Part shown: one piece after another, positions 7,693 through 56,670 of the stretch
How the letters are laid out: each line of letters begins with the position of its first letter
Numbering within the stretch: position 1 is the first letter of the stretch
From: a virus
Taxonomy: Duplodnaviria; Heunggongvirae; Uroviricota; Caudoviricetes
Length of the DNA: 64,000 bases
Virus record (IMG/VR): IMGVR_UViG_3300037189_028117
Location: 18,977 to 82,976 of that record
Direction: 5' to 3' (one strand)
Made by a program: the position numbers and the translations under genes
The notes under the pieces: generated by a model
The model's database searches: none
Seen by the model: the letters and a program-made list of their open reading frames with translations, nothing else
Told to the model about the DNA's origin: nothing

Positions 7693-8060
7693 AAAGACAT
7701 AATTTAGATTTAGGTAGAATAAAATATTCTGAAAAAGAATTAGAAAAAAATATTAAATTATTTGATTCAATTGATTGGTATAATATTTCTAAAAATCAAA
7801 AATTATCTGAAGAATTTATAGATAAATATTCAAAGATAGTTAGCTGGAGAGATATTTCTTGTTGTCAATATTTATCAGAAGAATTTATGGAAAAACACCA
7901 AAATAAAATTAGTTGGTGTTATATTTCTTGCTGCCAAAAATTATCTGAAAAATTTATAACAAAACATATAGATAAAATTGATTTTGAAGGGTTAATGGAA
8001 AATAAATATATTTCTCATAAAATTAAAGAAGAAATTAAAATATTGAAAGAAATTATATGA
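7689..8060 (+). CDS. 23-aa-repeat family protein (3 repeats)
   Basis: 'MKRHNLDL..KYSEKELEKNIKLF', Cys-containing repeat variants 'CCQYLSEEFMEKHQNKISW', 'KILKEII'. Confidence 0.7.
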   Translation: MKRHNLDLGRIKYSEKELEKNIKLFDSIDWYNISKNQKLSEEFIDKYSKIVSWRDISCCQYLSEEFMEKHQNKISWCYISCCQKLSEKFITKHIDKIDFEGLMENKYISHKIKEEIKILKEII

Positions 8061-8356
8061 AACATAATTTAGATTTAAGTAATACAAAATATTCAGAAGA
8101 AACGTTAGAAAAATATATTAATTCATTTTCTGGATGGGATTGGTATTATATTTCTTACTGTCAAGTTTTATCTGAAAAGTTTATAGAAAAACATTCGGAT
8201 AAATTAAATTGGTATGAAATTTCTTTTTATCAAAAATTATCCGAAGAATTTATGAAAAAACATATTGATAAAATTGATATTGGTTGTTTAACGGAGAACA
8301 AAAATATTTCTGAAAAAATCAAACAAGAAATTCAAACTTTGAAAGAAATAATTTAA
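8057..8356 (+). CDS. 23-aa-repeat family protein (2 repeats)
   Basis: 'MKHNLDLSNTKYSEETLEKYINSF', 'IQTLKEII'. Confidence 0.7.
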   Translation: MKHNLDLSNTKYSEETLEKYINSFSGWDWYYISYCQVLSEKFIEKHSDKLNWYEISFYQKLSEEFMKKHIDKIDIGCLTENKNISEKIKQEIQTLKEII

Positions 8357-8880
8357 GACATAGCTTGTTTTATTAGATACACAGAGGTTTCAAAATCATT
8401 AATTTGGCTCATTAACATATCGTCCAAACCTAATGACATTTCTCCAACAGCTTTAATTCGGTTGTAAACATCCTCCGCCATAATTATTAAATCTTGTTCA
8501 ACATCCAAAGAGTTTTTGAAAAAATTCTCAAAATGATACTTGCATAAGTTATTCATTTCAGGCAATTGATCTTCAATTACCAAAGAATCATTACCATATA
8601 AACCTATTATTTTTTCCGCAACGGAATCAATTTTATCACCAGCTTTTTCATAAATCTTTTGGAACATTTTATGATTCCCATAAAAATTTGGACCTTTACA
8701 TTTCCAATGAGAATGTTGATGAACAATATAAGAAACTCTAAGTAAAGCTAAATATTTATTTAATAAGTCTGGTCCAATAGAATCTTTTTTTTCTATTTTA
8801 GAAGAATCTGATGAATCATTTGCTAATTTAATTCTTCCAGATTTAATATCATCGTATATTTCTATTGGGTTTTTAACCAT
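8353..8880 (-). CDS. dps: Dps-like ferritin (DNA protection during starvation protein)
   Basis: 'LLRVSYIVHQHSHWKCKGPNFYGNHKMFQKIYEKAGDKIDSVAEKIIGLYG' matches Dps ferroxidase-site helix pair (HW.VKG..F...H..F...Y); SD 'gagga' upstream on minus strand; only minus-strand gene. Confidence 0.8.
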   Translation of the reverse strand: MVKNPIEIYDDIKSGRIKLANDSSDSSKIEKKDSIGPDLLNKYLALLRVSYIVHQHSHWKCKGPNFYGNHKMFQKIYEKAGDKIDSVAEKIIGLYGNDSLVIEDQLPEMNNLCKYHFENFFKNSLDVEQDLIIMAEDVYNRIKAVGEMSLGLDDMLMSQINDFETSVYLIKQAMS

Positions 8881-8930: not shown

Positions 8931-9650
8931 ATGAATATAATAAATGTTCCAAAAGGAACTCAAATACTCTTTGTTGGAGATATACACGAACACGATGATC
9001 AATTCTTTTCTTTAATGGAAAATTGGAAACCTTCTCTTGAAAGATGGGTCGTATCCCTGGGAGACGTGTGCGACAAGGGCAAGGGAGATGGAGCTTTCGA
9101 AAAGGTGTCTCATTTTTTGCAGGACGGCCACAGGCAGGGATGGGCAAGAGCAATCAAGGGAAACCACGAGCTGAAGCGTCTAAAAAATAGAAGACACAAT
9201 CTGAAAGATTATGACTTGTGGTGGAAAGAAAGACAAATTTCACTTTCATTTCAATTTTACAATTCAAATATTATAACTTGTGTTCATGCAGGAATTCCAC
9301 CCAAACTATCAAGCGATGATTTGAAAAAAAATCTTGATGTTTGTTATGTCAGAGACGTTGACGACCAAGGAATCATTCCATTAATTTGGAAACATGATGA
9401 AATAAATCCAAAGTTGGTCAAGGCTCGCGAAGGTGGGATTTCTTGGCATGAAATTTATGATGGACGTTTTGGTTATGTTATTTCCGGACATAATGCTCAA
9501 ACAGATGGCATTCCAAAGTTTTTTAATTATTCCTGCAATATAGATACAGGAGTATATGAAACTGGAATTTTAACTGGTCAAATTATTGATGAAAATGGAA
9601 AACTAGGAGAAACCTTACAAATTAAAGGTGAAGTTTTTAGAAGTAAATAA
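8931..9650 (+). CDS. calcineurin-like metallophosphoesterase (PPP family)
   Basis: 'LFVGDIHEHDD', 'SLGDVCDKG', 'GNHE' metallophosphatase motifs; contains a GC3-rich patch 9048-9182. Confidence 0.75.
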   Translation: MNIINVPKGTQILFVGDIHEHDDQFFSLMENWKPSLERWVVSLGDVCDKGKGDGAFEKVSHFLQDGHRQGWARAIKGNHELKRLKNRRHNLKDYDLWWKERQISLSFQFYNSNIITCVHAGIPPKLSSDDLKKNLDVCYVRDVDDQGIIPLIWKHDEINPKLVKAREGGISWHEIYDGRFGYVISGHNAQTDGIPKFFNYSCNIDTGVYETGILTGQIIDENGKLGETLQIKGEVFRSK

Positions 9651-9657
9651 GTTTTAA

Positions 9658-9770
9658 AAACTAAGTAAATATTATTTACTAAGTAAATATTACCTATAAT
9701 CTTGATTATAGGTAAATTTATTTACTAAGTAATATTTACTTAGTAAATAATATATATTATTTACTAACAA
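9658..9770. promoter_or_regulatory. array of 4-5 dyad-symmetric sites (ATTTAC-TAA-GTAAAT) plus 20-bp palindrome, candidate operator/iteron region
   Basis: direct copies at 9658-9674 and 9675-9692, perfect 13+3+13 palindrome 9720-9748, partial copy 9759-9769; hairpin 'cctataatcttgattatagg' 9693-9712. Confidence 0.6.
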
Positions 9771-9777
9771 AATATTA

Positions 9778-9804
9778 CGAAGTAATATTTTACTTCGTTT
9801 TTTG
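9778..9804 (+). terminator. intrinsic terminator
   Basis: 'cgaagtaa-tatt-ttacttcg' 8-bp stem + 'ttttttg'. Confidence 0.6.
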
Positions 9805-16598: not shown

Positions 16599-16893
16599 AA
16601 AGATACAATTTAAATATAATTAAATATAGTGAAAATTATTTACAACATAATTTTCATTCATTTGATTCAGTTGATTGGAGTTTAATATCTTCTTATCAGG
16701 TTTTATCGGAAGAATTTATTGAAAAAAAATTCACATAAAGTTAGTTGGAATGATATTTCTGCTAGTCAAAAATTGTCAGAAAAATTTATCAAAAAACATT
16801 TTAAATTACTTGATATAGATAGTTTGCTTTTAAATAAAAATATAAGTAAGAAAACAAAAGGGAAAATTCTATTATTAAAAGAAATAATATAAT
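16598..16893 (+). pseudogene. 23-aa-repeat family member split by frameshift in an A8 run (~16733)
   Basis: 'MKRYNLNIIKYSENYLQHNFHSFDSVDWSLISSYQVLSEEFIEKKFT*' then other frame 'KFTHKVSWNDISASQKLSEKFIKKHFKLLDIDSLLLNKNISKKTKGKILLLKEII*'. Confidence 0.55.
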
Positions 16894-17072
16894 GTACTCT
16901 ATACTATGTGAACTACTTTCACCTAAAAGTGAAGTCTTCCTATCTTTATTGAATAAAAAATATGATTTTTTGATTCAATAATCAAGGCTTTATATTCGGG
17001 CAGTTCCTGCCCTATTAACTTTATATTTTTTGTTGCATTGATATCCTTGTCATTAAGATATAGAATATATTG

Positions 17073-17102
17073 TTGACAAAACCTCACAAAAAGTAATATA
17101 AC
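17073..17102 (+). promoter_or_regulatory. candidate promoter TTGACA-18-TATAAC in 350-bp non-coding region with several hairpins
   Basis: -35 17073-17078; region 16894-17260 lacks ATG-initiated ORFs, has inverted repeats (tattgaat..attcaata; gggcag-ttc-ctgccc; cccttgcc-taaa-ggcaaggg). Confidence 0.35.
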
Positions 17103-17425
17103 AATAGGTACGAAAAATGTAAAAGAAAATTGTAAAAATTGTCAATTCATCCCTTGCCTAAAGGCAAGGGTCTTCTTGACTTTTTATATAAAAACGTTGA
17201 TGGGAAAAGAAAATATGTATCTTATCTTAAAGATTTTGATTTGTGGCCTTCATATGTAGGTGTCATGTTTACTGAAGATATAAATGATTCATATATTTTT
17301 GAAGCAGAAATGTTAAATTTTACATATATGGTAATTGATAATTATGATGATATAATTGAAGTCAAATTTAACACAAAAAAAGAACTGGATGATTTTATAA
17401 CTTTAGAAAATATTATTTAAAAATT

Positions 17426-19327: not shown

Positions 19328-19948
19328 ATGTCTCCATATATATATGAAAAAACAAAAGACGGAGAAATGATGTATGATGTTTTTTCAAGGTTGGTGAAGG
19401 ATAGAATAGTTTTCTTGTCCGGGGAAGTTAATACAGATATAGCTACAACAATATCCGCAACTCTTCTTTGGCTAGATAATCAAGACCATGATAAAGAAAT
19501 ATCTCTTTATTTAAATTCTCCTGGAGGTCTAGTACATTCTGGTTTATTTACTATAATTGATACTATGAATTATATTAAAGCTCCAGTTAAAACTGTATGT
19601 ATAGGTGAAGCTTATAGTGCAGCCGCTTTAATTCTTTCAAATGGAACAAAGGGTAGAAGGTTAGCTTTTGAAAATTCTAATATAATGATCCATGATATAC
19701 AAGCCGGAACAATAGGTTCTTTTACAAACATGGAAAAAGATATTAAAAGATTTAAGCATACAAATGATCGCTTGATGAATATTTTATCAAAAAATACAGG
19801 AAAAACAATATCCGAAATAAAAGAACAATCGAAAGAAGATTCTTATTTTACAGCAAAAGAAGCTTTGAAATTTGGTTTAATAGATAAAATTGTAAAATCA
19901 AATTCTTCTTTTAATCCAAAAGAAATAGATGATGAATTTAATATTTAA
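19328..19948 (+). CDS. clpP: ATP-dependent Clp protease proteolytic subunit ClpP
   Basis: 'LYLNSPGGLVHSG', 'CIGEAYSAAALIL' (Ser), 'IMIHD' (His), 'NDRLMNIL' (Asp); RBS 'aaggaataaaatATG'. Confidence 0.85.
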   Translation: MSPYIYEKTKDGEMMYDVFSRLVKDRIVFLSGEVNTDIATTISATLLWLDNQDHDKEISLYLNSPGGLVHSGLFTIIDTMNYIKAPVKTVCIGEAYSAAALILSNGTKGRRLAFENSNIMIHDIQAGTIGSFTNMEKDIKRFKHTNDRLMNILSKNTGKTISEIKEQSKEDSYFTAKEALKFGLIDKIVKSNSSFNPKEIDDEFNI

Positions 19949-27258: not shown

Positions 27259-27776
27259 AAAAACATAATTTGGATTTAAAATATAATAGATATTCAGAGC
27301 AAGAATTAAAAGATAAAATTCACTTATTTGATTTAAATGATTGGGATAATGTTTCTGAGCATCAAAATCTATCTAAAATTTTTATCAGAAAACATTCAGA
27401 CAAACTTTGTTGGGGTTGCATTTCTTACTTTCAAGAATTATCAGAAAAACTTATAGAAAAATATTCGGAAAAAGTTAATTGGCATTCGATTTCTTCTGAA
27501 CAAAAATTATCAGAAGAATTTATTGAAAAATACTCAGATAAAGTTGATTGGATTAATATTTCTTATTGTCAAAAATTATCTGAAAAATTTATAGATAAAT
27601 ACTCAAATAAACTTGATTGGTATTCTATTTCTGCTAGTCAAAAATTATCAGAAGAGTTTATAAAAAAATATATAAATAAAATTAATATTGGTTTTTTAAT
27701 GGAAAACCCAAACATTTCTGAAAAATTAAAAAAGAAAATAAAAAAAGAAATTAAATTATTAAAAGAAATCATATGA
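27255..27776 (+). CDS. 23-aa-repeat family protein (5 repeats)
   Basis: canonical caps and repeats. Confidence 0.75.
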   Translation: MKKHNLDLKYNRYSEQELKDKIHLFDLNDWDNVSEHQNLSKIFIRKHSDKLCWGCISYFQELSEKLIEKYSEKVNWHSISSEQKLSEEFIEKYSDKVDWINISYCQKLSEKFIDKYSNKLDWYSISASQKLSEEFIKKYINKINIGFLMENPNISEKLKKKIKKEIKLLKEII

Positions 27777-28156
27777 AAAAACATAATTTAGATTTATTAA
27801 GTAAAATATATTCCGAAGAAGAATTGGAAGAAAACATTATGTTATTTAAAAAACTTGATTGGCATACAATTTGTTATGCGCAGGTTTTGTCTGAAAATTT
27901 TATTGAAAAATACTCTGATAAAATTTATTGGGAATTGATTTCTGAATGTCAAAATTTATCCGAAGAATTTATTGAAAAACATTCAGATAAAGTTGACTGG
28001 GATTATATTGCTATAGAGCAAGTTTTATCAGAAAAATTTATAAGAAAACATATAGATAAAATTGATATTAATTATTTAATGGAAAACTATCATATAGATG
28101 AGAATGTAAAATCTAAAATTAAATTAGAAGTCGATTTATTAAAAGAAATTATATAA
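27773..28156 (+). CDS. 23-aa-repeat family protein (3 repeats)
   Basis: canonical caps, 'VDLLKEII'. Confidence 0.7.
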   Translation: MKKHNLDLLSKIYSEEELEENIMLFKKLDWHTICYAQVLSENFIEKYSDKIYWELISECQNLSEEFIEKHSDKVDWDYIAIEQVLSEKFIRKHIDKIDINYLMENYHIDENVKSKIKLEVDLLKEII

Positions 28157-28418
28157 ATAAAAACAATTATAAAAAGATTAAAATTAATAACGGTAAAGAA
28201 TATTATATTCTTTTTTCTAAAAGAAAAAAAGATCCAATTTTAAGCGTGCGGCCAATAATAAAATATTTCCCAGAAATAGAGTTTGAATATGAATGTGATA
28301 TAAAAACTCTTATGAGTGAAATTTTCGATTTTGATTATTCTTATTATTTGGAAGATATTTCAAATGAAGAATATGAATTAATATTGTTAAAAAAATTATA
28401 AATTAAGAAAGACAAAAA

Positions 28419-29312
28419 ATGGCATCAGTAATAGATAGGGTTTTTAGATTTAATTTAGCTTCTCCTCCACCTTGGTTGAGAACAAATGTTCATTACGAAG
28501 TTGTTATGGGATCTACCGCTTATGGTGTATCTTCTGATAATTCTGATATGGACATTTATGGATTTTGTATTCCTCCTAAAGAATATATATTCCCTCATTT
28601 ATCCGGTTACATCAATGGTTTTGGTAAAAAACCTCCAAATTTTGAAGTTTGGACAGAACATCATATAAAAGACAAAGATAAAAACAAAGAATACGATTTT
28701 TCTATTTATGGAATTGTTAAATTTTTTCAATTGTGTATGGACAATAACCCAAACATGATTGATTCTCTTTTTGTTCCACAAAACTGCGTTCTTCATCAAA
28801 CCAGAGTCGCTACAATGATTAGAGATAATAGAAAAATATTTCTTCATAAGGGATGCTATCATAAATTTAAAGGTTACTCATTTAGTCAATTACATAAAGC
28901 TGAAATTAAAAATCCACAAGAAGGTTCAAAAAGATATGAAGATATAAAAAATCATGGTTATGATTCAAAATTCTTGTACCACGTTGTTAGACTTTTAGAT
29001 GAATGTGAGCAAATTCTTACATTAGGTGACCTTGATTTACAGAGGTCGAAAGAGTATCTTAAGGCCATCCGTAGAGGAGAAGTTTCCGAAGAAGATGTAA
29101 AATCTTATTTTAACGAAAAAGAAAAATATTTAAACAAATGTTACGAAGAATCAAAGCTTCCTTATTCTCCAGATGAGGATAAAATAAAAACTCTTCTTTT
29201 GAATTGCTTGGAGGACCATTATGGTTCTTTGGAAAAAGCTTATTTTGATCCTGGCAAAGCTGAAAAGGCTTTGATGGAAATAAAGCAAATAATTGAAAGA
29301 AATGTAAAATGA
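28419..29312 (+). CDS. Pol-beta-superfamily nucleotidyltransferase-fold protein
   Basis: 'GSTAYGVSSDNSDMDIYGF' = GS-x9-DxD NTase motif. Confidence 0.55.
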   Translation: MASVIDRVFRFNLASPPPWLRTNVHYEVVMGSTAYGVSSDNSDMDIYGFCIPPKEYIFPHLSGYINGFGKKPPNFEVWTEHHIKDKDKNKEYDFSIYGIVKFFQLCMDNNPNMIDSLFVPQNCVLHQTRVATMIRDNRKIFLHKGCYHKFKGYSFSQLHKAEIKNPQEGSKRYEDIKNHGYDSKFLYHVVRLLDECEQILTLGDLDLQRSKEYLKAIRRGEVSEEDVKSYFNEKEKYLNKCYEESKLPYSPDEDKIKTLLLNCLEDHYGSLEKAYFDPGKAEKALMEIKQIIERNVK

Positions 29313-29677
29313 ATTTAATGAACAAAAAATATTCTGAAAAAGAATTGGAAGTGAATATTGATTCATTTAATGATATTGATTGGATGAACGTTTGTGAATT
29401 TCAGAATTTATCTGAAGAATTTATGGAAAAATATTATAATAAGTTGAATTGGCTTTATGTTTCTAAATGTCAAAAATTATCTGAAAATTTTATAGAAAAA
29501 TATTCAGATGAATTATATTGGGATTTGATTTCTCAATATCAAAAATTATCAGAGTTTTTTATTAAAAAACATATAAATAAAATTAGTTTTTATGATCTTA
29601 TGTTAAATAAAAACATTTCAAAACATTTGAAAGAAGAAATAAAAGAAGAATTAGAGTTGTTGAAAGAAGTTATATGA
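29309..29677 (+). CDS. 23-aa-repeat family protein (3 repeats)
   Basis: 'KKYSEKELEVNIDSFNDIDW', 'LELLKEVI'. Confidence 0.7.
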   Translation: MNLMNKKYSEKELEVNIDSFNDIDWMNVCEFQNLSEEFMEKYYNKLNWLYVSKCQKLSENFIEKYSDELYWDLISQYQKLSEFFIKKHINKISFYDLMLNKNISKHLKEEIKEELELLKEVI

Positions 29678-29973
29678 AACATAATTTAGATTTAGTGTAT
29701 AAAAAATATACCGAAGAAGAATTAGAAAATAACATTCATTTATTTGAATTCAATGATTTTCGTAGAATTTATACATATCAAAAATTATCAGAAAAGTTTA
29801 TAGAAAAACATTCAACTAATGTTGATTGGGGATATATTTCTCATTATCAATATTTATCTGAAGAATTTATAAAAAAACATATAAATAAAATTAGTATTTA
29901 TTATTTAATGATGAACAAAAAAATCTCTAAGAACATCAAACAAGAAATAAAAACATTAAAGTATATAATATGA
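29674..29973 (+). CDS. 23-aa-repeat family protein (2 repeats)
   Basis: 'MKHNLDLVYKKYTEEELENNIHLF', 'IKTLKYII'. Confidence 0.7.
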   Translation: MKHNLDLVYKKYTEEELENNIHLFEFNDFRRIYTYQKLSEKFIEKHSTNVDWGYISHYQYLSEEFIKKHINKISIYYLMMNKKISKNIKQEIKTLKYII

Positions 29974-30269
29974 AAAAACATAATTTAGATTTATTTAAGA
30001 AATGTTCTGAAAAAGAATTAGAAAAAAACATTGATTTATTTAATCAAATTGAGTGGAATATTATTTCTTATTCTCAAAAATTATCAGAGTCATTTATAGA
30101 AAAATATTCACATAAACTTGATTGGGGATGGATTTCAATTTATCAAGAATTATCTGAAAAATTTATAATGAAACATCTTGATAAGATTAGTGTTTTTTGG
30201 TTAATGGAAAATAAAAAAATCTCTAATAATATTAAAAAAGAAATAAAAACATTAAAAGATATAATATAA
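29970..30269 (+). CDS. 23-aa-repeat family protein (2 repeats)
   Basis: 'MKKHNLDLFKKCSEKELEKNIDLF', 'IKTLKDII'. Confidence 0.7.
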   Translation: MKKHNLDLFKKCSEKELEKNIDLFNQIEWNIISYSQKLSESFIEKYSHKLDWGWISIYQELSEKFIMKHLDKISVFWLMENKKISNNIKKEIKTLKDII

Positions 30270-30373
30270 TGACAAAGCAAGAAAAGATATATAAACTATG
30301 TTTAAAGTTCATAAAAGAAAATAAAATTGGTTGCTCGGAAACTATTTTTCAAACCGACATGGTTTCTGAATAG
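30269..30373 (+). CDS. possible 34-aa micro-ORF (TAATG overlap)
   Basis: 'MTKQEKIYKLCLKFIKENKIGCSETIFQTDMVSE*'. Confidence 0.25.
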   Translation: MTKQEKIYKLCLKFIKENKIGCSETIFQTDMVSE

Positions 30374-30433
30374 GCATTACCTTTTATTGAAGAAATTTGT
30401 CAAATTGTTGGTTACGATAGGAGCGAAAGTTAA

Positions 30434-30997
30434 ATGGAAAGTTTTTTTCAATGGTATAATTTAATTTACTATGCAAGTTTGTTTGTTGGCATAATTCTTT
30501 CTTCATTGTCAGCTTTGGATGTTGACTTGGATATGGATGATGTTCCAAGCTCATTTTTCCAAGCGTTTGGAATTGGGAAAATACCAATAATGATAACAAT
30601 TGTCATCATTTGTTTGGTTTTTGGCTTTTTCGGAAATGTTTTTAATTATGTTTTTAGTATAAACTCTTTATCAACTTCATTTGATTATATTAAAGTTTTT
30701 TTATTATCTTTTATAACTTCAATAATTTTTCATTCTTTTACTGCTTATTTGTTTAATAATATTTTCAAAGACAAGCCAAATAAAGAAAATAAAATAATTG
30801 GTTCAAATGGAGTATTGAGAACGAAAGTTTCAAAAGAAAATAAAAAAGGATTGGCTAATTTTTACGTCAATGGAGATGTTTTTCAACATCATGTATATTT
30901 TGAAGATCTTGATGTGGATTTAATTCCATTGACAGATATAACCGCGGTTGGTTACAATGAAGAAACCAAAGAATATTTGGTAGAAAGAAAGGTATAA
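30434..30997 (+). CDS. NfeD-like membrane protein (flotillin partner)
   Basis: N-terminal TM helices, soluble C-terminal beta domain, SD 'aggag', immediately upstream of SPFH gene. Confidence 0.55.
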   Translation: MESFFQWYNLIYYASLFVGIILSSLSALDVDLDMDDVPSSFFQAFGIGKIPIMITIVIICLVFGFFGNVFNYVFSINSLSTSFDYIKVFLLSFITSIIFHSFTAYLFNNIFKDKPNKENKIIGSNGVLRTKVSKENKKGLANFYVNGDVFQHHVYFEDLDVDLIPLTDITAVGYNEETKEYLVERKV

Positions 30998-31090
30998 TGT
31001 TATTTTTAAATTATTTAGTTTTGGGTGTATTTTCATCCATATTGTTTGTGTATTTTGTTAATAAGTTTTTAAAGAAAGGTAAAATGTAAT

Positions 31091-32932
31091 ATGAATATTT
31101 TTTTAGTAGTTTTAAGTTTAATTATGTTATTTTCACAAGTTCTTCTTGGTCTTGTTGGGATAACTTTAAGTCCAGTATCTAATATGATAATTTCTGGATT
31201 AGCCATTTTAGTTTTAATGGCAGTAACTTCAATTTTGGTAGTTACTAAACTATACGTAAGAGCAAAGCCGAATGCTGCCTTTGTAAGAACCGGTATGGGT
31301 GGCCTTAAGGTTGTAAAAGATGGTGGTGCATTAGTAATTCCAATTCTTCATCAAATTGTTTGGGTTAACCTAGAAACAATTAGACTAGAAGTCAACCGCT
31401 CAGGTAAAGATGCACTTATAGTAAAGGACATGCGCGCAGACATACAGGCAGAATTCTTCGTAAGAGTTCAACCAGACGAATCCTCTATTCAATCCGCAGC
31501 AAGATCTCTTGGAGATAAGAAAGATGCCACAAATTCAATTGCAGCTCTTTTGATTGATAAGCTTGTCTCTGCCTTACGTACGGCAGCAGCAGTTAAAACA
31601 TTGGCTCAACTAAACTCAGAAAGAGAAGAATTCGTAAAAGAAGTTACAAATCAAATTAAAGAAGATTTGGCTCATAACGGGTTTACGTTAGAAACGGTTA
31701 CAATTTCGGCACTTGACCAAACTGATGTTATTCATTTTAAAGCAACAAATACTTTTGATGCTCAAGGCTTGGCAAATATTGCCCAAATTACAGAATCAAA
31801 TTTAACCAAAAAGAATGAAGCGGAGAATCTAAATAAGAAAGCTCGTAAGGAACAGGATGTAAAAACTGCTCTTTCTGTTTTTGATTTAGAGAAAACTCAA
31901 GCTGAAGCTGCGGCAAAACAAAAAACTGAAATTGCAATTGTTACAGCTGAACAAGAAAAGCAAGCAAAAGAAAAAGTAATTGAAGCTGAAAGATCTGTAG
32001 ATTTAGCTAACGTTGAAAGAATGAAAACAATTGAAATTGCAAAACGTGAACAAGAAAAGGCTGCAGAAATCGCAGCTAAAGAAAAAGAACGTTCGATTGT
32101 TGATGCTGAAAAGTTGGTTGAAGTCGCTAAACGTTTGCAACAAGAAGCAATTGCTCAAGCTGAAGCTAAGAAAGCATTAGAAGAAGCAAAACAAGCTCAA
32201 GCGGAAGCTTCTAGAGCTGAAGAAAGACAAAAAATTCTAACAGTAGAAGAAGTTGCAAAGGCAAATCGTGATAAGACCGTAAATGTTACAAAAGCAGAAG
32301 CGGAAGCTCAACAAAACCTTGTTACAGCACAAAAACAAGCAGACGCAGATGCTTATAAAATTACAGCTCAAGCTGAGGCAAGAAAAGCATCAGCCGATGC
32401 TGACGCAGAAGCAATTAAAAAGAAGGCAGAAGCAGAAGCCGAAGCCGTAAAAAGAAAAGCTGAAGCAGACGCTTTCGCAAAGACAAATATGGCACAAGCA
32501 GAACGTTCTCAGTTGTTAGCTCTTGCAGAAGGTACAAAAGCTCAACAAATGGTTCCAGTGGAAGTTGCAGAAAAGCAAGTTGCCGTTGATAAATCAAGAG
32601 TTGAAGATGTTCTTAAACCAGAACTTGAGGCTCGTGAAAAGAGCGGTAAGGTTGCTCAAGAATTTGAGATTGAACAAATGAAAATAAAATATAATGCAGA
32701 AATAAGCGTTGCTTATGCTCAAGCATTAGGTTCAATGGCTGGTAAGTTTGAAGCAACACTATATGGAACTCCCGAGCAAGCTGCTGATATGTTTAGCAAG
32801 TTTGGTAAAGGGTTTGGTTTAGCTCAAACTTTAGAGGGTATGATTGATGGTTCTGGAGAAGGAACCAGAAATCTAATTCAAAAAGCTGGTGAGGCTGTTG
32901 AATCATTGCTACCTAAAAAAGAAGAAAAATAA
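31091..32932 (+). CDS. SPFH/band-7 flotillin-like protein (YqiK/FloA type)
   Basis: N-terminal TM, SPFH domain, long Ala/Glu-rich 'AEAEA' coiled coil. Confidence 0.8.
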   Translation: MNIFLVVLSLIMLFSQVLLGLVGITLSPVSNMIISGLAILVLMAVTSILVVTKLYVRAKPNAAFVRTGMGGLKVVKDGGALVIPILHQIVWVNLETIRLEVNRSGKDALIVKDMRADIQAEFFVRVQPDESSIQSAARSLGDKKDATNSIAALLIDKLVSALRTAAAVKTLAQLNSEREEFVKEVTNQIKEDLAHNGFTLETVTISALDQTDVIHFKATNTFDAQGLANIAQITESNLTKKNEAENLNKKARKEQDVKTALSVFDLEKTQAEAAAKQKTEIAIVTAEQEKQAKEKVIEAERSVDLANVERMKTIEIAKREQEKAAEIAAKEKERSIVDAEKLVEVAKRLQQEAIAQAEAKKALEEAKQAQAEASRAEERQKILTVEEVAKANRDKTVNVTKAEAEAQQNLVTAQKQADADAYKITAQAEARKASADADAEAIKKKAEAEAEAVKRKAEADAFAKTNMAQAERSQLLALAEGTKAQQMVPVEVAEKQVAVDKSRVEDVLKPELEAREKSGKVAQEFEIEQMKIKYNAEISVAYAQALGSMAGKFEATLYGTPEQAADMFSKFGKGFGLAQTLEGMIDGSGEGTRNLIQKAGEAVESLLPKKEEK

Positions 32933-32960
32933 GATTGACTAAACGGTCATCCTCATGGTA

Positions 32961-32998
32961 AAAGGAGGAGAGGTTAATTCCTCTCCTCCTTTTTATTT
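32961..32998 (+). terminator. strong intrinsic terminator after flotillin gene
   Basis: 'aaaggaggagagg-ttaatt-cctctcctccttt' + 'ttttatttg'. Confidence 0.8.
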
Positions 32999-33001
32999 GA
33001 T

Positions 33002-33382
33002 ATGAAACATAATTTAGATTTAATAAATAATAATTCTTCCGAAGAAGAATTAGAAAAATATATACACTTATTTGAATCGCTTGATTGGATATATATTTCT
33101 GCGTATCAAAAATTATCTGAAGAATTTATAGAAAATCATTCAGATGATGTTCGTTGGGATAAAATTTCTAAATACCAAATTTTATCAGAAAATTTTATTG
33201 AAAAATATTCAGATAAGCTTAGGTGGGATTATATTTCTTATTATCAAAAATTATCCGAAGAATTTATAAAAAAACATATCAATAAAATTGATGTTGAAGA
33301 GTTAATAGAAAACAATAAAATTTCTAAAAAGTTAAAAGAAAAAATTGAAAAAGAAATTAATTTATTGAAAGAAATTATATGA
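33002..33382 (+). CDS. 23-aa-repeat family protein (3 repeats)
   Basis: canonical caps. Confidence 0.7.
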   Translation: MKHNLDLINNNSSEEELEKYIHLFESLDWIYISAYQKLSEEFIENHSDDVRWDKISKYQILSENFIEKYSDKLRWDYISYYQKLSEEFIKKHINKIDVEELIENNKISKKLKEKIEKEINLLKEII

Positions 33383-33815
33383 AACATAATTTAAGTCTAA
33401 GTGATAAAAAATATTCGGAAAAAATTTTAGAAAAAAATATTAAATTATTTACGGAATGGGATTGGTTTTTCATTTCAAGATATCAAAATTTATCAGAACA
33501 ATTTACAGAAAAAAATGTAGATAAACTTCATTGGGGTTGCATTTCTTGCTTTAAAAAATTATCTGAATGTTTTTTATAAAATATTCAGATAAATTAAATT
33601 GGAACTTGATTTCTAGATATCAAAAGTTATCAGAAAATTTTATAAAAAAACATTCAGATAAAGTTAATTGGTATGAAATTTCTTATTATCAAAAATTATC
33701 CGGTAAATTTATAAAAAGAAATGTTAATAAAATTAATTTTACTTTGCTTATGATGAATAAAAACATTTCAGATGGAATAAAAAATGAAATACTGACTTTG
33801 AAAGAAATTATATGA
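33379..33815 (+). pseudogene. 23-aa-repeat family member split by frameshift in a T6 run (~33573); called as two ORFs 33379-33579 and 33567-33815
   Basis: '...CFKKLSECFL*' then other frame 'FIKYSDKLNWNLISRYQKLSE...'; one extra T would restore 'LSECFFIKYSDKLNW'. Confidence 0.55.
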
Positions 33816-34057
33816 AAAAACATAATTTAAATTTGGCCAGGAATAAATATTCAGAAAAAGAATTAGAAGATAATATTAACTTTTTTGATCTAATAGATTG
33901 GGGAGATATTGCTTATCATCAAGAATTATCCGAAGAATTTATAAAAAAACATATTAATAAAATTAGTATTTTTTTATTAATGAGAAACAAGAAAATTTCT
34001 AAAAAATTAAAAGAAAAAATTGAAAAAGAAATTAATTTATTGAAAGAAATTATATAA
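33812..34057 (+). CDS. 23-aa-repeat family protein (1 repeat)
   Basis: caps with single repeat. Confidence 0.65.
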   Translation: MKKHNLNLARNKYSEKELEDNINFFDLIDWGDIAYHQELSEEFIKKHINKISIFLLMRNKKISKKLKEKIEKEINLLKEII

Positions 34058-34361: not shown

Positions 34362-35411
34362 ATGATAAAAAACACAATAGGAATACCAAAAGAAATAAAA
34401 AAATTTGAATTTAGAGTTGGAGCAACTCCAACTTGTGTAAAAGCTTACAAGAAAATTTGCGAATATGTTTTCGTTGAAGCTGGAGCTGGTATAGGTTCCG
34501 GCTTTTCTGACGATGAATATGCTGAAGCTGGAGCAACAATTGTATCCACAGCAAAAGAAGCTTGGAATGCTGAAATGGTTATAAAAGTAAAAGAACCTCA
34601 ACCTTCTGAATTTCAATATTTTGAAAAAGGTAAATTTCTTTATACTTACCTTCATTTAGCAGCTTTCCCAGATTTAACAGAAGCTTTGGTTCGCTCTGAG
34701 ATGAATTGCGTTGGATATGAAACAATCTCAGAAAACAATTCTTTAGTTTGTCTAGAACCAATGTCCATCATTGCTGGCAAGCTGGCTGCTCAGAAGGGGT
34801 CCGAGTACCTCCTAGCGCCACACGGTAGGGGCATTTTAATGGGGGGTCTTCCTGGAATTCCTCCAGCCAATGTAACCATTGTTGGTGGTGGTTCAGTCGG
34901 AACGGCCGCTGCAAGAGTATCTATTGGCATGGGAGCAAACGTTACCATACTTGATATTTCTCAAAAAAGATTATATGAATTAGAAAATATATTTGGAAAT
35001 TCAGTTAATTTATTATTATCAAATGATAAAAATATAAAATCAACATTAGTAAATACTGATCTTTTAATTGGTGCAGTTCTTATTCCTGGTAAAAAAGCTC
35101 CAAAATTATTTAATTCAATTTTACTTAATTTAATGAAAAGAAATTCTGTATTTGTTGATGTTGCCATAGATCAAGGTGGTTGTTCAGATACATCTGTGCC
35201 TACTACACATGATAATCCTATATATTATAAAGATAATATTTTGCATTATTGTGTAGCAAATATGCCTTCTGTATCAGCTAGAACATCAACTTTAGCCTTA
35301 ACTAATTCAACTTTAAAATATGGTTTAGATTTATTTTTAAATAAAGATAGAAAATGCGAAATAGATAAAGGTTGGCAAATTAATAAAAACGGAATGATAA
35401 TATCAATGTGA
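34362..35411 (+). CDS. ald: L-alanine dehydrogenase
   Basis: near-colinear with bacterial Ald: 'IGIPKEIKKFEFRV', 'AGAGIGSGF', 'AEMVIKVKEP', 'YTYLHLAA', 'VTIVGGGSVGTAAAR', 'VDVAIDQGG', 'HYCVANMP'; SD 'aaaggaaaatcg'. Confidence 0.85.
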   Translation: MIKNTIGIPKEIKKFEFRVGATPTCVKAYKKICEYVFVEAGAGIGSGFSDDEYAEAGATIVSTAKEAWNAEMVIKVKEPQPSEFQYFEKGKFLYTYLHLAAFPDLTEALVRSEMNCVGYETISENNSLVCLEPMSIIAGKLAAQKGSEYLLAPHGRGILMGGLPGIPPANVTIVGGGSVGTAAARVSIGMGANVTILDISQKRLYELENIFGNSVNLLLSNDKNIKSTLVNTDLLIGAVLIPGKKAPKLFNSILLNLMKRNSVFVDVAIDQGGCSDTSVPTTHDNPIYYKDNILHYCVANMPSVSARTSTLALTNSTLKYGLDLFLNKDRKCEIDKGWQINKNGMIISM

Positions 35412-38199: not shown

Positions 38200-39501
38200 A
38201 TGACAACATTAACAGAACTAGACATTGAGAAACAAGAAGATTTATCTAAAAAAAGACTTAAGTCATTTACCCCGAAATATTCAAACTTAAATGATAGACC
38301 TGAATCAAATTTAATAGATTTAATGAATTGGGTTCAAAATACATTTAAAACTGAATTGAAAGATTCAAAACATTTAAGTAATGTCATTCACAATAAAATT
38401 GTAATTGATGGACCATTCGTTCAATTTTGCGAAGAAAATGAAATAAAAATAGAATGTTTATATAAAGATTCTTTTGCTTCTTGGAAGTCCGAAAATAACT
38501 TTGAAAGTTTCACATTTCAAGGTGTTTTTAAAATTTCAAAAGGAAATCTTGAATTTATACAATCTTCCTTATTTCATAAGGGCAATCAAAACGAAGATGA
38601 AGTTTCATATTTTATAGTTGTAAGCGATGATAAATTTCATCAATATACAAAATTAAGAAATGATTATGATAGTTGGTTAATTGCAAGAGACCGTGAAAAT
38701 CTTGAAATCCAAGTCATTGGAGGAGAGCCAATTCCATATGAAAGGAACCTTTCTTGGGATGATCTTTTCATGGAAGAATCTTTGAAAAAAGAAATAAAAG
38801 GTACGGTTGAAGGTTTTCTTAATGCAGAATCTCTTTATAAAGAACGTGGTATTCCATGGAAAAGAGGTGTTTTGTTTTTCGGGGAGCCAGGAAATGGAAA
38901 AACATCTGCAATAAGAACGATTATATCAGAATATAATTTTAAGCCAGTTACAGTTCAAAATAGCGCATCCACTAATGATGATACCATTACTGAAGCTTTT
39001 GTTTATGCAGAACAACAGGGGCCTTCATTATTATATTTTGAAGATCTAGATAGTTTGTTGCAACAAAATATTAGCTTAAGTCATTTTTTGAATTTAATGG
39101 ACGGCGTTGCATCTAAACAAGGAATTTTCATAATTGCTACAGCTAATGAACCAGGAATATTAAAGCAATCTATAACAGACAGACCTTCTAGATTTGATCG
39201 TAAATGGGAATTTAAATTACCAGATGAAAAGAGTTCTTTAGATTATTTAAAGAAGTGGTTTGGAACACAAATTAAAGAAGAATCTTTGAAAAAAGTTGCC
39301 GAAAAAACTGTAAAATATAAATTTTCTTTTTCATATTTGAAAGAATTATATATAACTGCGGCATATTCTGCAATTTCAAATAATAGAAAAACACCAAATA
39401 ATAAAGATTTATCAATTGCCTTGAAGCAATTGGTAGGAGATAAAACAAGAGCGCAAGATGGGTTTTATACAAATACAAGTGAGGAAATAGGAATAAGATG
39501 A
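38200..39501 (+). CDS. AAA family ATPase
   Basis: Walker A 'GEPGNGKTS', Walker B 'LLYFEDLD', sensor 'ATANEP'. Confidence 0.75.
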   Translation: MTTLTELDIEKQEDLSKKRLKSFTPKYSNLNDRPESNLIDLMNWVQNTFKTELKDSKHLSNVIHNKIVIDGPFVQFCEENEIKIECLYKDSFASWKSENNFESFTFQGVFKISKGNLEFIQSSLFHKGNQNEDEVSYFIVVSDDKFHQYTKLRNDYDSWLIARDRENLEIQVIGGEPIPYERNLSWDDLFMEESLKKEIKGTVEGFLNAESLYKERGIPWKRGVLFFGEPGNGKTSAIRTIISEYNFKPVTVQNSASTNDDTITEAFVYAEQQGPSLLYFEDLDSLLQQNISLSHFLNLMDGVASKQGIFIIATANEPGILKQSITDRPSRFDRKWEFKLPDEKSSLDYLKKWFGTQIKEESLKKVAEKTVKYKFSFSYLKELYITAAYSAISNNRKTPNNKDLSIALKQLVGDKTRAQDGFYTNTSEEIGIR

Positions 39502-44870: not shown

Positions 44871-45413
44871 TTGCAAAACTTTAAGAATAAAAGACCAAAT
44901 AAAATATATATACCTTATAATGATAGAATTAAAGCAACTCACGTTAGATGCATAGATTCTTCAAATGAAAATATAGGTGTCTTACCTATAATGGAAGCTA
45001 TAGATAAAGCTTTCTCTGAAGATTTAGATTTAGTTCAAATTTCTGAAGGAAAGGATGGTATACCAGTTTGTAAAATAACTGATTTTGGAAAGTTTAAATT
45101 TGAATTTCAAAAGAAACAAAAAGAGACTGCTAAGAAACAAAGAGAAGCAATTATCAAAGTAAAAGAAATAAAATTAAGACCTTCTACAGAAGATAATGAT
45201 TTAAAAATAAAAGCAGAAAAAGCTAATGAATTTATAAATGATGGTGATAAAGTAAAAATATTTATAGTATTTAGAGGAAGAGAAATGGCTCATAAAGAGT
45301 TGGGTTACGAAACTTTAAATAAATTTTTAAGTTTTATACCGGAGAAAAATGTTTATAATCAATCTTTTCAAGGGAAAATTCTATCAACAATGATAGAGAA
45401 GAAAGCAAAATGA
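44871..45413 (+). CDS. infC: translation initiation factor IF-3 (TTG start)
   Basis: 'IPVCKITDFGKFKFEFQKK..KKQ...IKVKEIKLRPSTEDNDLKIK...DGDKVKIFIVFRGREMAH' colinear with bacterial IF-3. Confidence 0.85.
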   Translation: MQNFKNKRPNKIYIPYNDRIKATHVRCIDSSNENIGVLPIMEAIDKAFSEDLDLVQISEGKDGIPVCKITDFGKFKFEFQKKQKETAKKQREAIIKVKEIKLRPSTEDNDLKIKAEKANEFINDGDKVKIFIVFRGREMAHKELGYETLNKFLSFIPEKNVYNQSFQGKILSTMIEKKAK

Positions 45414-45922
45414 TAATTACAGATATAGATAAGCTTTCGGTTTTATCAGAAGATGTAAGTCCGGAAGAAGCTCTTACTATAATTGACTTATTAGAAAAAG
45501 AATTAGAAAATTCTGCAAAGCAAGGTAGTCCAGGCATTGGATTAGCTGCGCCACAAATAGGTATAAATAAAAAGGTAGCTATAGTTAGAGTTGGTGACAA
45601 TAAAATAAATCTTGTTAATTCTAAAATAGTAGAAAAAATAATACCTTTCGAATTTGATGGTGAAGGATGTCTTTCATTCCCTGGAATGATTAAAAAAACT
45701 AAAAGGTACAAAGAAATAGTTGTAGAGAACGAAATTTATCCACACAAGTTTATTGCAACTGATTTGTTGGCAGTTGTAATTCAACACGAAATTGGTCATT
45801 GGAATAACGAACTTTTGCCTTATATAGAAGATCTTAATCCAAAAGTAAAACAGAAATTACGACCGAATGATCTATGTAATTGTGGTAGTGGTAAAAAATA
45901 TAAAAAATGTTGTGGAGCATAA
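45410..45922 (+). CDS. def: peptide deformylase with C-terminal SEC-C zinc motif
   Basis: PDF motifs 'GIGLAAPQIG', 'EGCLSFPG', 'QHEIGH'; C-terminus 'CNCGSGKKYKKCCG' = SecA-type SEC-C. Confidence 0.8.
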   Translation: MIITDIDKLSVLSEDVSPEEALTIIDLLEKELENSAKQGSPGIGLAAPQIGINKKVAIVRVGDNKINLVNSKIVEKIIPFEFDGEGCLSFPGMIKKTKRYKEIVVENEIYPHKFIATDLLAVVIQHEIGHWNNELLPYIEDLNPKVKQKLRPNDLCNCGSGKKYKKCCGA

Positions 45923-54566: not shown

Positions 54567-55472
54567 ATGTCAGTTTTAAAAGGAAAGTTTTTGAAAGTTT
54601 TGCCAGAGAATTATTCTCAACATTTTAAACTTTCTGTATCTAAAATTAAAACATTTGAGTCATGTAAGGCTAAGTTTTATTTTTCATATATAAAATATAT
54701 TCAAAAGAAAGAATGGGAATTCCAAATATTTGGATCATTTTTACATGAAGTTTTAGAAAGATTTGAGGAGTTCATAAAAAACGGTGATTCTTCTGAAGAA
54801 AATGTAATTATGAAAAAAGCTTTCAATAATGCTTGGAAAGCTGTACCGTTTAAAAACGGTGAAAAGTTTACAAAATGGTCAGAAAAAGTTTCCGTAGAAC
54901 AGAAGAAAGAATGTTTAACTATATTAAACAGCTACCTATCTTTAAGAAAATCTTTGAAAGAAAATGGTAATGTATCTAAAACACTGGATACAGAAAAGAA
55001 GTTTAATATTTTATTGCAAGAAAATTTATTAATAAATGGTTTTATAGATTTGTTACAAGAAGATAGTGATGGTATTTTACATGTAATTGATTATAAATCA
55101 AGTTCACATACAAAATATTTAAAGAAAGATAAGTTTCAATTACAAACATATGCTTATGCTCTTTTTCTTGAAAACCCAGAATTACAAAAAATAAGAGGTT
55201 CTTATGTTATGTTAAAACATAATTTTGAAAAAATAACATTTGAATTTACAAGAGATCAAATTATGAAATGTGAGAAAGAATTCATAAAATATTATGAACA
55301 AATGCAAGAAGAAAAGCTTTATAGACCTGAACCTGGACCCCTTTGCAAATATTGTGACGCTTTAGATTTATGTGAAGAAGGGCAAAAAAGAGTTGAGGAA
55401 GACAAGCAACGAGAAGAGAAAAAAAAGGATTACTCAATACAAAACATTGTAGTTGGTGAAAGGGAATGGTAA
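54567..55472 (+). CDS. PD-(D/E)XK nuclease with 4-Cys cluster (Cas4/AddB-like)
   Basis: 'GFIDLL', 'ILHVIDYKSS' (D...E/D-x-K), Cys at 'ESCKAKFYF' and 'CKYCDALDLCEE'. Confidence 0.65.
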   Translation: MSVLKGKFLKVLPENYSQHFKLSVSKIKTFESCKAKFYFSYIKYIQKKEWEFQIFGSFLHEVLERFEEFIKNGDSSEENVIMKKAFNNAWKAVPFKNGEKFTKWSEKVSVEQKKECLTILNSYLSLRKSLKENGNVSKTLDTEKKFNILLQENLLINGFIDLLQEDSDGILHVIDYKSSSHTKYLKKDKFQLQTYAYALFLENPELQKIRGSYVMLKHNFEKITFEFTRDQIMKCEKEFIKYYEQMQEEKLYRPEPGPLCKYCDALDLCEEGQKRVEEDKQREEKKKDYSIQNIVVGEREW

Positions 55473-55473
55473 A

Positions 55474-56670
55474 ATGATTTCAGTACAAGATATAGAATAT
55501 TGCAAAGTTAAAGTTAATTACAAGGCTGATTTAGAAAAGATCAATTCAGTAAAAAATGATATTATTAAAAATTTTAGAAACATGAAAGTGCCAGGATTTA
55601 GAACTGGCAAAGCATCTGATCAAGCGGTTTTTTATCATTACAAATCGGAAATAAATAACGCTGTCAAAAATGAATTGATAAGTCAATCAAATGACGATAT
55701 TTTATTTGAAACTAAAATAAGACCAATAGGGCAACCACAAATCAAAAGTGTATTTTTTGATGGTAAAATATTCGAGTGTGAAATTGTCTATTCAAAAAAA
55801 CCAGATTTTGAATTAAAACAATATAAAGAACTTGAGGTTGTAGATCCACATATGGATTCTTCTGTAGAAGAAATTACAGAAAGCACAATTCAAGAATTAA
55901 GAAACCAATTTTCAGAAGTTAGAGCTTATGCCGATGAAGACTTTATACAAGATGGAGATAAAGTGACCTTATCATATAAGTTTGAGGATGGTACAGAAGA
56001 AGAAGGTACTTTATATACTGTTGGATCAAACGGGTTTCCTGGTTTCGACCAAAATATATATGGCATGTCTCCCGGAGACGAAAGAGATTTTCAAATTGAA
56101 TTAAATGGTAAAGTCCAAAAATGCCATGTTCAATTTCATATGGGTATGAAAAAATCTCCAGCTGAGCTAAATGATTCTTTGGCAATAAAAGTTGGTCTAC
56201 AAAATATAGATGAACTTTATGTTAATGTAAAGGCAATGTCTGAGCAACAATTTAAAGCACAAAAAGATGCAAAGATTGCAGATCAAATTATTAAAATCTT
56301 ATGTGATTCACATGAAATTGTATCTCCAGAATGGATTGTTGAGCTAGAAGCGCAACAATTAACATTAAAAGAAGGTCAAAAGTTTAGCGAACTTGATGAT
56401 AATGTAAAAAAACATTATTTAGAAAAAGCTGAAAAAAATGTTAAATTGGCATTTATTTTAGATTCTATTCAAATGGAAGAACCAGAATCTAAAATTTCAG
56501 AAAACGAAGCTCTTCAATTAATTCACCAAAACCTAACCCAAAGAGGTATTAAAGCGCAAGAATGGATGGAGAACGCTGCAAAAAATGGAATGTTGCAAGG
56601 TGTTCTAACAAAATTCAGAAATGATTTTACCATTCAATGGTTGGTGGATAATTGTAAAAAGATTTCCTAA
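55474..56670 (+). CDS. tig: trigger factor-like chaperone
   Basis: N-domain 'MKVPGFRTGKASDQAV' (TF 'GFRKGKVP'), PPIase-like 'FPGFDQNIYGMSPGDERDF' (TF 'IPGFEDGIKGHKAGEEF'); start taken at 'MISVQD'. Confidence 0.7.
   Translation: MISVQDIEYCKVKVNYKADLEKINSVKNDIIKNFRNMKVPGFRTGKASDQAVFYHYKSEINNAVKNELISQSNDDILFETKIRPIGQPQIKSVFFDGKIFECEIVYSKKPDFELKQYKELEVVDPHMDSSVEEITESTIQELRNQFSEVRAYADEDFIQDGDKVTLSYKFEDGTEEEGTLYTVGSNGFPGFDQNIYGMSPGDERDFQIELNGKVQKCHVQFHMGMKKSPAELNDSLAIKVGLQNIDELYVNVKAMSEQQFKAQKDAKIADQIIKILCDSHEIVSPEWIVELEAQQLTLKEGQKFSELDDNVKKHYLEKAEKNVKLAFILDSIQMEEPESKISENEALQLIHQNLTQRGIKAQEWMENAAKNGMLQGVLTKFRNDFTIQWLVDNCKKIS

Follow-up and report, generated by a model that had tools for sequence, protein, structure and literature searches.

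Why would a virus carry the genes of a flotillin and its NfeD partner? Operons of NfeD and flotillin genes are textbook bacterial units, and the question is raised by a stretch of 64,000 nucleotides (nt) of viral DNA, positions 18,977 to 82,976 of the IMG/VR record IMGVR_UViG_3300037189_028117, which we analysed at its full length and refer to as the window, with positions counted from its first letter. On its plus strand, the window holds two adjacent genes, ORF1 (30434-30997; 187 amino acids, aa) and ORF2 (31091-32932; 613 aa), followed by a terminator-like hairpin; the observation of the three together is real and far beyond chance. The original prediction, made from the letters alone, had seen here an NfeD-flotillin pair in a viral genome, closed by a strong terminator, and had suggested that the pair organises membrane replication or assembly sites or modulates membrane-associated defences of the host. 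ORF1-ORF2 is an operon of the NfeD2-SPFH2 type defined by Hinderhofer et al. (PMC2636767); judged from its sequence, it is a functional copy of the module maintained by the phage and not a recent passenger, and we argue by analogy that it probably serves as a scaffold for membrane integrity and protein quality control in huge-phage infection. The operon is known in kind and the role of such a pair in phage infection is unstudied: in the literature on phage flotillin or NfeD function, we found passing annotations only and no work devoted to a YqiJ/YqiK-type pair of a phage.

The two proteins of the pair

The identity of ORF2 is indicated by sequence, composition and fold, all of which point to a YqiK-type (SPFH2) flotillin homologue. 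The protein begins with a transmembrane hairpin (residues 2-54, with helices at 2-21 and 28-54); the SPFH/Band_7 domain occupies residues 58-211, two long helices take up 221-381 and 390-550, and a helical tail closes the C-terminus. The Pfam model Band_7 (PF01145) matches residues 58-211 with 45.7 bits, above the gathering cutoff of 23.6 (E 1e-11), as the original prediction had expected of a hidden Markov model (HMM) search, and BLASTP aligns the protein with Escherichia coli K-12 YqiK at 34% identity over 453 aa (E 3e-64). A set of 5.8 billion proteins contains 1,354 homologues; the best 120 of them are full length (about 590-660 aa) with identities of 44-54%, and the full-length homologues carry source names such as "flotillin" or "membrane protein YqiK". 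The score against the FloT equivalog (NCBIfam NF058507) was 31.5 bits with a cutoff of 700, and ORF2 is not an orthologue of FloT. Residues 221-550 are made up of 21.5% Ala, 15% Glu and 13% Lys, and the predicted Ala/Glu coiled coil of a YqiK-like flotillin is, in this respect as in the others, borne out. The AlphaFold model shows two hydrophobic helices at the N-terminus, then the SPFH domain with its alpha/beta fold, then a pair of helices that each measure ~160 residues. A Foldseek search of the PDB placed the human flotillin-1/2 complex first (9L3G, 9BQ2; E 4e-9, 400 aligned columns), flotillin-1 being the best match both by sequence and by fold, and all 47 matches at E<1e-3 are either SPFH proteins (stomatin, prohibitin, HflK/C, erlin, QmcA) or vault. 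The original prediction had named one competing identity, a phage structural coiled-coil protein, and that identity has no place among these matches. With a membrane anchor, an SPFH domain, long Ala/Glu-rich helices and an NfeD2 gene upstream, ORF2 has the complete set of features of a prokaryotic SPFH2 flotillin.

ORF1 required its relatives to be recognised. On its own, the protein reaches a single Pfam model, YqiJ_N, with 26.5 bits (cutoff 23), and a search of the same 5.8-billion-protein set with the single sequence returned only ORF1 itself. We therefore built the family from the genes upstream of flotillin at related loci and continued with an iterative search. In the resulting alignment of 39 members, YqiJ_N is matched by every sequence and NfeD (PF01957) by six; the HMM check for NfeD thus came out positive at the level of the family, while ORF1 alone gets no further than YqiJ_N. 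The family profile also matches the NfeD OB domains of YuaF from Bacillus subtilis (2K14; E 2.4e-4) and of the stomatin-operon partner protein STOPP from Pyrococcus (3WWV; E 1e-3), and hhalign aligns the family with E. coli YqiJ from the second transmembrane helix through the C-terminus (probability 97%, E 4.5e-11). A profile search found 622 relatives, many of them under the COG name of NfeD, [quoted passage not shown]. The three transmembrane helices of ORF1 lie at about residues 7-27, 52-77 and 84-112, and a C-terminal OB barrel of five strands at about residues 121-187; the acidic loop is short (DVDLDMDD), the Asp/His-rich loop of the relatives in the 39-member alignment being nearly all lost. 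The AF2 model, computed with the alignment of the profile-search relatives as input, has a pLDDT of 84 (94-98 in the barrel) and reproduces the three transmembrane helices and the five strands; its top three Foldseek matches in the PDB are YbbJ within QmcA-YbbJ (8Z5G), YuaF (2K14) and the soluble domain of NfeD (3CP0). Three transmembrane helices and an OB barrel with no ClpP domain are the features of the short form, and by sequence and model ORF1 is a short NfeD2/YqiJ-type protein. The NfeD-like identity that had been suggested for it has thus held up, through YqiJ_N, the YuaF and STOPP profile matches and the fold matches alike.

The pairing is no peculiarity of the window: an ORF1 homologue lies directly upstream of the flotillin gene at 88 of 93 related loci, and the predicted order of an NfeD gene followed by a flotillin gene is therefore a recurrent one. 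With yqiJ-yqiK of E. coli (NfeD2/SPFH2; YqiJ PF21001+PF07290), the pair shares this order, a short spacer and an architecture of transmembrane helices and an OB domain. It differs from it in several ways: ORF2 is 60 aa longer than YqiK, its helical region being extended and its C-terminal tail different; ORF1, at 187 aa against the 209 of YqiJ, is the shorter protein, has its acidic/His-rich loop almost deleted and falls short of the Pfam model YqiJ_OB; and the pair is found in a phage-like genome of 27% GC instead of a chromosome, with a possible 30-aa transmembrane mini-ORF between the genes. The yuaF-floT(yuaG)-yuaI operon of B. subtilis resembles the pair in its OB-fold NfeD2 partner (the ORF1 model superposes on YuaF 2K14 with a TM-score of 0.66, normalised on the target) and in FloT, which like ORF2 joins an SPFH domain to a long Ala/Glu-rich helix; ORF2 is not orthologous to FloT, however, and a YuaI-like acetyltransferase is absent at the window pair.

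Selection, relatives and the genome around the pair

The strength of selection on the pair can be judged against a sister strain, L103 (JGI metagenome 3300043444), whose synonymous divergence (dS) from the window is about 0.13. ORF2 differs from its counterpart by 49 synonymous and 3 non-synonymous changes, giving a ratio of non-synonymous to synonymous rates (dN/dS) of 0.016, and all three non-synonymous changes fall in the transmembrane hairpin; ORF1 has 14 synonymous and 11 non-synonymous differences and a dN/dS of 0.19. All invariant columns of a 34-sequence family alignment are kept in ORF2. The G+C content at third codon positions (GC3) is 0.19 for ORF2 and 0.20 for ORF1, and 0.14-0.21 for other genes of the window, and we found no relatives of the pair in genomes of less than 37% GC. 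Since GC3 matches that of the window genes and relatives of such low GC were not found, the pair is a long-standing resident.

Relatives are to be found in both bacteria and phage-like contigs. Among GTDB genomes, the family occurs chiefly in Myxococcota (Polyangiales), Armatimonadota and Planctomycetota, with some short contigs binned as Candidate Phyla Radiation (CPR). Flotillin-NfeD pairs are present on CPR-binned contigs of 17-198 kb (L017, L037, L040, L045 and L065; Candidatus Magasanikbacteria or Uhrbacteria), which may be misbinned phage contigs or carry real CPR copies. IMG/VR yielded no relative to a single-sequence scan and six loci to an alignment-based one, their contigs measuring 31-424 kb; a megablast search of GenBank phages with the 8.5-kb region returned nothing, and PHROGs has no family for either ORF1 or ORF2. 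In a tree built by neighbour joining from 196 sequences and 595 columns, with 100 bootstraps, ORF2 belongs to a clade of 70 members with a bootstrap support of 89/100, its position within the clade being unstable. All chromosome-scale contigs (1-9 Mb), including the Myxococcota copies, fall outside this clade, which contains four of the IMG/VR loci; among its further members are ORFan-rich contigs with lengths of 23-435 kb, and one protein is found on contigs of up to 659 kb. The contexts inspected within the clade, 15 in number, are phage-like in 12 cases (the window, L001, L004, L007, L009/L096, L010, L011, L014, L097, L101, L102 and the 435-kb contig of P0065), bacterial-looking in one (L005, with MurB and Ser/Thr kinases) and ambiguous in two (L015 and L016). 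We called a context phage-like when it was rich in ORFans and contained genes such as HNH, topoisomerase IB, PTH2, NUDIX, UDG, Thg1, Tpt1, thymidylate synthase/DHFR, Acb5, a Tad2-like gene or a K1-lyase tailspike. The inspected phage-like relatives span a GC range from 27% to 65%. A modest but new comparative point, on the evidence of these sequences, is the existence of a phage-enriched flotillin clade under strong constraint.

Is the window itself viral? We consider it very likely to be a part of a huge phage, a rating that stops short of proof from the window because 64 kb contain no capsid, terminase, portal or tail genes. A PHROG match to a "head maturation protease" turned out to be a plain Clp protease. 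The viral label that the original prediction took for granted is backed by gene organisation, PHROG content and IMG/VR relatives, from which we make the call. The window has a GC of 27% and is 94% coding on the plus strand, with about 100 ORFs that are short for the most part and have overlapping starts and stops; tRNA and ribosomal genes are absent, and the proteins occur on a source contig of 171,650 bp. The PHROG family phrog_3532, of unknown function, is matched by 25 of the 97 plus-strand ORFs (best E 6e-58). Genes for DNA and RNA transactions include a DnaE-type polymerase, SbcCD, an ATP-dependent ligase, TopA, an FtsK-like ATPase, a DnaG-type zinc-ribbon (primase-like) protein, a PD-(D/E)XK nuclease, an RNA ligase, RlaP and NUDIX. 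To these are added Thg1 (1493-2332), ClpP (19328-19948), alanine dehydrogenase (34362-35411), IF3 (44871-45413), peptide deformylase with a SEC-C motif (45410-45922) and trigger factor (55453-56670), a translation and proteostasis set of a host-like kind. A gene set of this composition (DnaE, SbcCD, RlaP, Thg1, IF3, ClpP, trigger factor etc.) is typical for huge phages.

The same data bear on the possibility that the pair represents a host operon captured only recently and without a role for the element, or that the window is a fragment of a plasmid or a cellular genome. The lack of capsid, terminase and tail genes, the many "cellular" genes (DnaE, TopA, trigger factor, IF3, alanine dehydrogenase) and the bacterial-looking context of one clade member, L005, could be read in this way. 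A recent passenger, however, is hard to reconcile with fully ameliorated GC3, the low dN/dS of ORF2, the lack of relatives below 37% GC and the fact that related phage genomes have conserved the pair, and a cellular fragment does not agree with the coding of 94% on one strand, the overlapping starts and stops, the phrog_3532 genes, the missing tRNA and ribosomal genes and nearest relatives that lie in IMG/VR and on ORFan-rich contigs. We thus hold either form of this explanation to be very improbable.

Fine structure of the locus

The two genes are preceded by Shine-Dalgarno sequences of their own, as had been claimed for the pair: AGGAG lies 10 nt ahead of the ORF1 ATG and AAAGG 11 nt ahead of the ORF2 ATG. 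Between the end of ORF1 and ORF2 there are 93 nt, and these contain a candidate mini-ORF of 30 aa (30997-31089, plus strand; MLFLNYLVLGVFSSILFVYFVNKFLKKGKM), for which sequence and hydropathy suggest a single transmembrane segment, followed by a tail of basic character. In TAATG it overlaps the ORF1 stop; it ends 1 nt ahead of the ORF2 ATG, and its frame is open in L103, with two synonymous changes and one V-to-I replacement. The chance probability of an open 30-codon frame at this site is a few percent; the mini-ORF is absent between the two genes at other loci and is for this reason kept as a candidate only.

On the other hand, the notion of a free-standing unit with a promoter gap of its own has to be given up. 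The 164 nt upstream of ORF1 are occupied by a small ORF of 54 codons (30269-30433, plus strand), which overlaps the stop of the preceding paralog in TAATG, contains the AGGAG of ORF1 and ends with a TAA that abuts the ORF1 ATG; a free promoter gap is therefore absent, and the genes are packed against the upstream array of paralogs. In the window, this small ORF has an in-frame TAG at 30371; it is intact in the sister strain (MTKQEK...GYNRGES; dN/dS about 0.3). Recoding of TAG or TGA as sense was considered and rejected, as the standard code gives 93% coding, read-through adds almost nothing and TAG serves as the stop in 6 of 100 ORFs of the window; since recoding is not seen, the small ORF has here probably been truncated, or turned into a pseudogene, by a nonsense mutation. 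A sigma-70 scan gave 20 sites against 24 expected from shuffles, and we therefore claim no promoter. An Rfam scan of 29500-33500 returned only a sub-threshold match to a SAR11 sRNA, which we take as chance.

The element behind the pair (32956-32998, plus strand) consists of an A-tract, the hairpin AAAAGGAGGAGAGG-TTAATT-CCTCTCCTCCTTTT and a U-rich tail; the hairpin is followed by TATTTG, the U-tract being given as TTTTTATTT. The hairpin proper (32960-32993) has a perfect stem of 14 bp, made of a G+C-rich core of 10 bp and four A-U pairs, and a loop of 6 nt: the terminator-like hairpin of the original prediction is indeed in place, while its stem is 14 bp long and not 11. With a minimum free energy of -30.9 kcal/mol (z = -5.5), it folds better than any of 200 dinucleotide shuffles; in L103, the stem is identical and three substitutions lie just 5' of it. 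Intrinsic terminators show a G+C-rich hairpin with a U-tract right behind it where a gene ends, and the predicted element conforms to this pattern, suggesting that it acts as a transcription terminator. As the next gene starts 8 nt past the hairpin, with its ATG at 33002, there may be some read-through, or the hairpin may mainly be a 3' stabiliser. Either way, it is the first clear punctuation after a series of genes packed end to end. A scan with a custom script found only two strong plus-strand hairpins of this kind in 64 kb, the other being AATGGCGGGAGGAAACTCCCGCCATT followed by TTT at 57002-57027, after the ORF at 56693-56998 and upstream of the DnaE gene.

On both sides, the pair is flanked by tandem arrays of phrog_3532 paralogs on the plus strand (27773-30269 and 33002-34057), the family being also scattered across the whole window. 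The paralogs are ~80-130 aa long and share the repeat "...LSEEFIEKYSDK..W..IS.YQ.LSE.FI.KH..KI...", with a conserved MKKHNLDL start and LKEII end; decayed copies are visible at 33379-33815, with a frameshift, and within the gap at 16599-17138. Farther away, the stretch 3791-5384 is locally rich in G+C (39% in the 4001-6000 bin of the profile, 27% overall) and holds an AAA ATPase gene (3997-5310), after which comes a G+C-rich palindromic hairpin (5327-5349); the stretch may have been acquired more recently. On the minus strand, a single gene is convincing; it encodes a ferritin/Dps-like protein (8353-8880; Pfam Ferritin, E 2e-10). The intergenic region 9634-9790 is dense with direct and inverted copies of TTTACTAAGTAAATA, including two arms of 31 nt with a complementarity of 94%, and may be an origin or a regulatory region.

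Roles in infection

Known SPFH systems suggest how the pair would work. ORF2 would insert in the cytoplasmic membrane of the host with its N-terminal helical hairpin and oligomerise through its long helices, as other SPFH proteins do, into a cage with the shape of a ring or dome at the cytoplasmic side; ORF1, with its three transmembrane helices, would be made from the same transcript and join the cage with its OB domain, as YbbJ does with QmcA. For the phage, such a cage would most likely be of use in maintaining the inner membrane of the host, along with the proteins in it, in working order through the long infection of a huge phage, and the scaffold would act alongside the phage-encoded ClpP, AAA ATPases, trigger factor and peptide deformylase and not as a part of the virion. 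We infer the cage, its topology, the co-transcription and the physiological role by analogy, the structural precedents being QmcA-YbbJ (8Z5G), HflK/C-FtsH (7WI3) and the dome of human flotillin-1/2 (9BQ2, 9L3G). The cage architecture is taken from the published structures, and the QmcA-YbbJ cage is made of 26 heterodimers, as cited in PMC13086221. The ORF2 model matches flotillin-1/2, stomatin, prohibitin, HflK/C and QmcA, in this order; sequence identities to the precedents are only 9-22%. Unlike the window pair, QmcA is of the stomatin type, HflK/C face the periplasm and eukaryotic flotillins have neither an NfeD partner nor a transmembrane hairpin.

The reading of the pair as a scaffold for membrane integrity and protein quality control fits with three observations: envelope-stress neighbours in a cultured phage, an FtsH-like neighbour in another lineage, and the chaperone and protease set of the window. 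The cultured phage is Sinorhizobium phage Phosso (PV764938; 469 kb), in which gp491-492, annotated as "hypothetical protein" and "SPFH domain-containing protein", form a YqiJ-like and flotillin pair as in the window. The ORF1-family HMM matches the former with an E of 1e-29, and the latter is 45% identical to ORF2 over the SPFH domain, a more distant copy without which the tree was built. At 4290-8470 of the Phosso locus (L098), the YqiJ-like, flotillin, XpaC-like (PF10112) and TelA genes stand in a row that looks like an envelope-stress gene cluster. The FtsH-like neighbour, a Peptidase_M41 gene of 642 aa, lies directly downstream of flotillin in L096 (12055-13983; the same locus as L009, IMG/VR UViG_3300037225_000673). 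For S. aureus FloA-NfeD, a study cited in PMC13086221 reported that unfolded proteins are stabilised by it under stress.

The protease genes could also be given a more specific meaning, with the pair as a regulator or adaptor of a membrane AAA protease, either host FtsH or a phage-encoded enzyme, that tunes the degradation of membrane or regulatory proteins in the manner of HflK/C-FtsH and QmcA. Besides the FtsH-like gene of L009/L096, an AAA ATPase gene directly before the NfeD gene in L101, the window AAA ATPases (38200-39501 and 3997-5310) and ClpP, and the SPFH-FtsH complexes (7WI3, 9CZ2) among the fold matches of ORF2 are in agreement with such a function. Each of these adjacencies is, however, confined to a single lineage, the AAA proteins of the window have no Peptidase_M41 domain and ORF2 is of the flotillin (SPFH2) and not of the HflK/C type. 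We find this explanation unlikely in its specific form; it overlaps with the scaffold reading and does not exclude it. More generally, we found no conserved third partner: FtsH, AAA, TelA and a downstream gene of 215 aa each occur in single sub-lineages, one of which has NUDIX-NfeD-flotillin-X215 synteny in common, and none of these stands beside the window pair.

SPFH genes have been noted in jumbo phages, their function being described as "poorly understood" (PMC7760394, PMC6034870, PMC13239085), and mass spectrometry of virion preparations from Erwinia jumbo phages has revealed proteins with SPFH domains (PMC7760394, PMC6034870). The crAss-like csAssE-Sib has a transmembrane protein followed by a "flotillin family protein", and none of the phage SPFH genes named here comes from a genome as AT-rich as that of the window. 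A paper on Perkons, considered as a report of a phage flotillin, was set aside as it concerns integration into the host floA gene. The Erwinia proteins, and RaK2-like ones likewise reported from virion preparations, could mean that a flotillin marks sites for capsid or tail assembly or for DNA packaging, or is itself packaged. Neither the RaK2-like nor the Erwinia proteins were retrieved by tblastn with ORF2 at E<=1e-5, and the Erwinia ones thus probably belong to a different subfamily; the window pair is surrounded by genes for replication and host takeover and has no structural ones close by, and in every studied case a membrane-anchored cage with an NfeD partner is a device of the cell membrane. 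A virion or assembly-site scaffold is, for these reasons, improbable, and the comparative data lean towards membrane integrity or quality control over the assembly sites that had been proposed for the pair.

The other role proposed, a dealing with host defences, would have the cage shield or reorganise the inner membrane against abortive-infection effectors, that is, pore formers and transmembrane effectors of CBASS, Pycsar or retron-type systems, or against the DNA injection of rival phages. Genes for anti-defence are present near the pair on carrier contigs (Acb5 in L007, Tad2-like on the P0065 contig), the pair stands amid genes of an early or replication type instead of structural ones, and purifying selection is strong. 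The anti-defence genes are nevertheless kilobases away and common in huge phages anyway, PADLOC models match neither protein apart from one weak hit of ORF1 (CARF_2M, E 0.003), and we found no link in the literature between SPFH proteins and phage defence or counter-defence. We give counter-defence or superinfection exclusion little credence. A bolder and doubtful proposal would unite several of these threads: the YqiJ/YqiK-type pair as a "core accessory" module spanning lineages of environmental huge phages (27-65% GC), with a phage clade of its own, that builds a cage on the host membrane either as a shield against abortive-infection effectors and premature lysis or as the organiser of a membrane-bound compartment or quality-control hub, together with phage-encoded proteases (FtsH-like, ClpP).

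Several points weigh against the scaffold for membrane integrity and quality control that we favour. The ORF2 model is moderate (pLDDT 66, pTM 0.27) and that of a monomer, so that oligomerisation is by analogy only; with no hallmark structural genes in the window, the word phage rests on gene content; and the tree is distance based, with 15 of the 70 clade contexts inspected. The neighbours of the pair vary among phages, making guilt by association weak, and FtsH is adjacent in one lineage only. According to PMC2636767 and PMC13086221, knock-outs of bacterial flotillins often have mild phenotypes, and a selective benefit is correspondingly hard to see. Finally, what the phage copies would do in infection is argued from comparison.

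Whatever the exact role, bacterial flotillins and their NfeD partners are widespread, yet their physiological role is debated and knock-outs are often silent. The strong selection on ORF2 and the recurrence of the module across huge phages of varied base composition point to late infection as a setting in which it gives a measurable advantage, and Phosso, a cultured phage with the pair beside TelA and XpaC genes, offers a tractable entry to the role of an SPFH-NfeD cage in a stressed membrane. The pair adds a membrane scaffold to the host-like functions of huge phages, beside their genes for translation, chaperones and proteases. If true, either use of such a cage, as a shield or as a quality-control hub, would put flotillin scaffolds to a viral purpose that is new to the literature.

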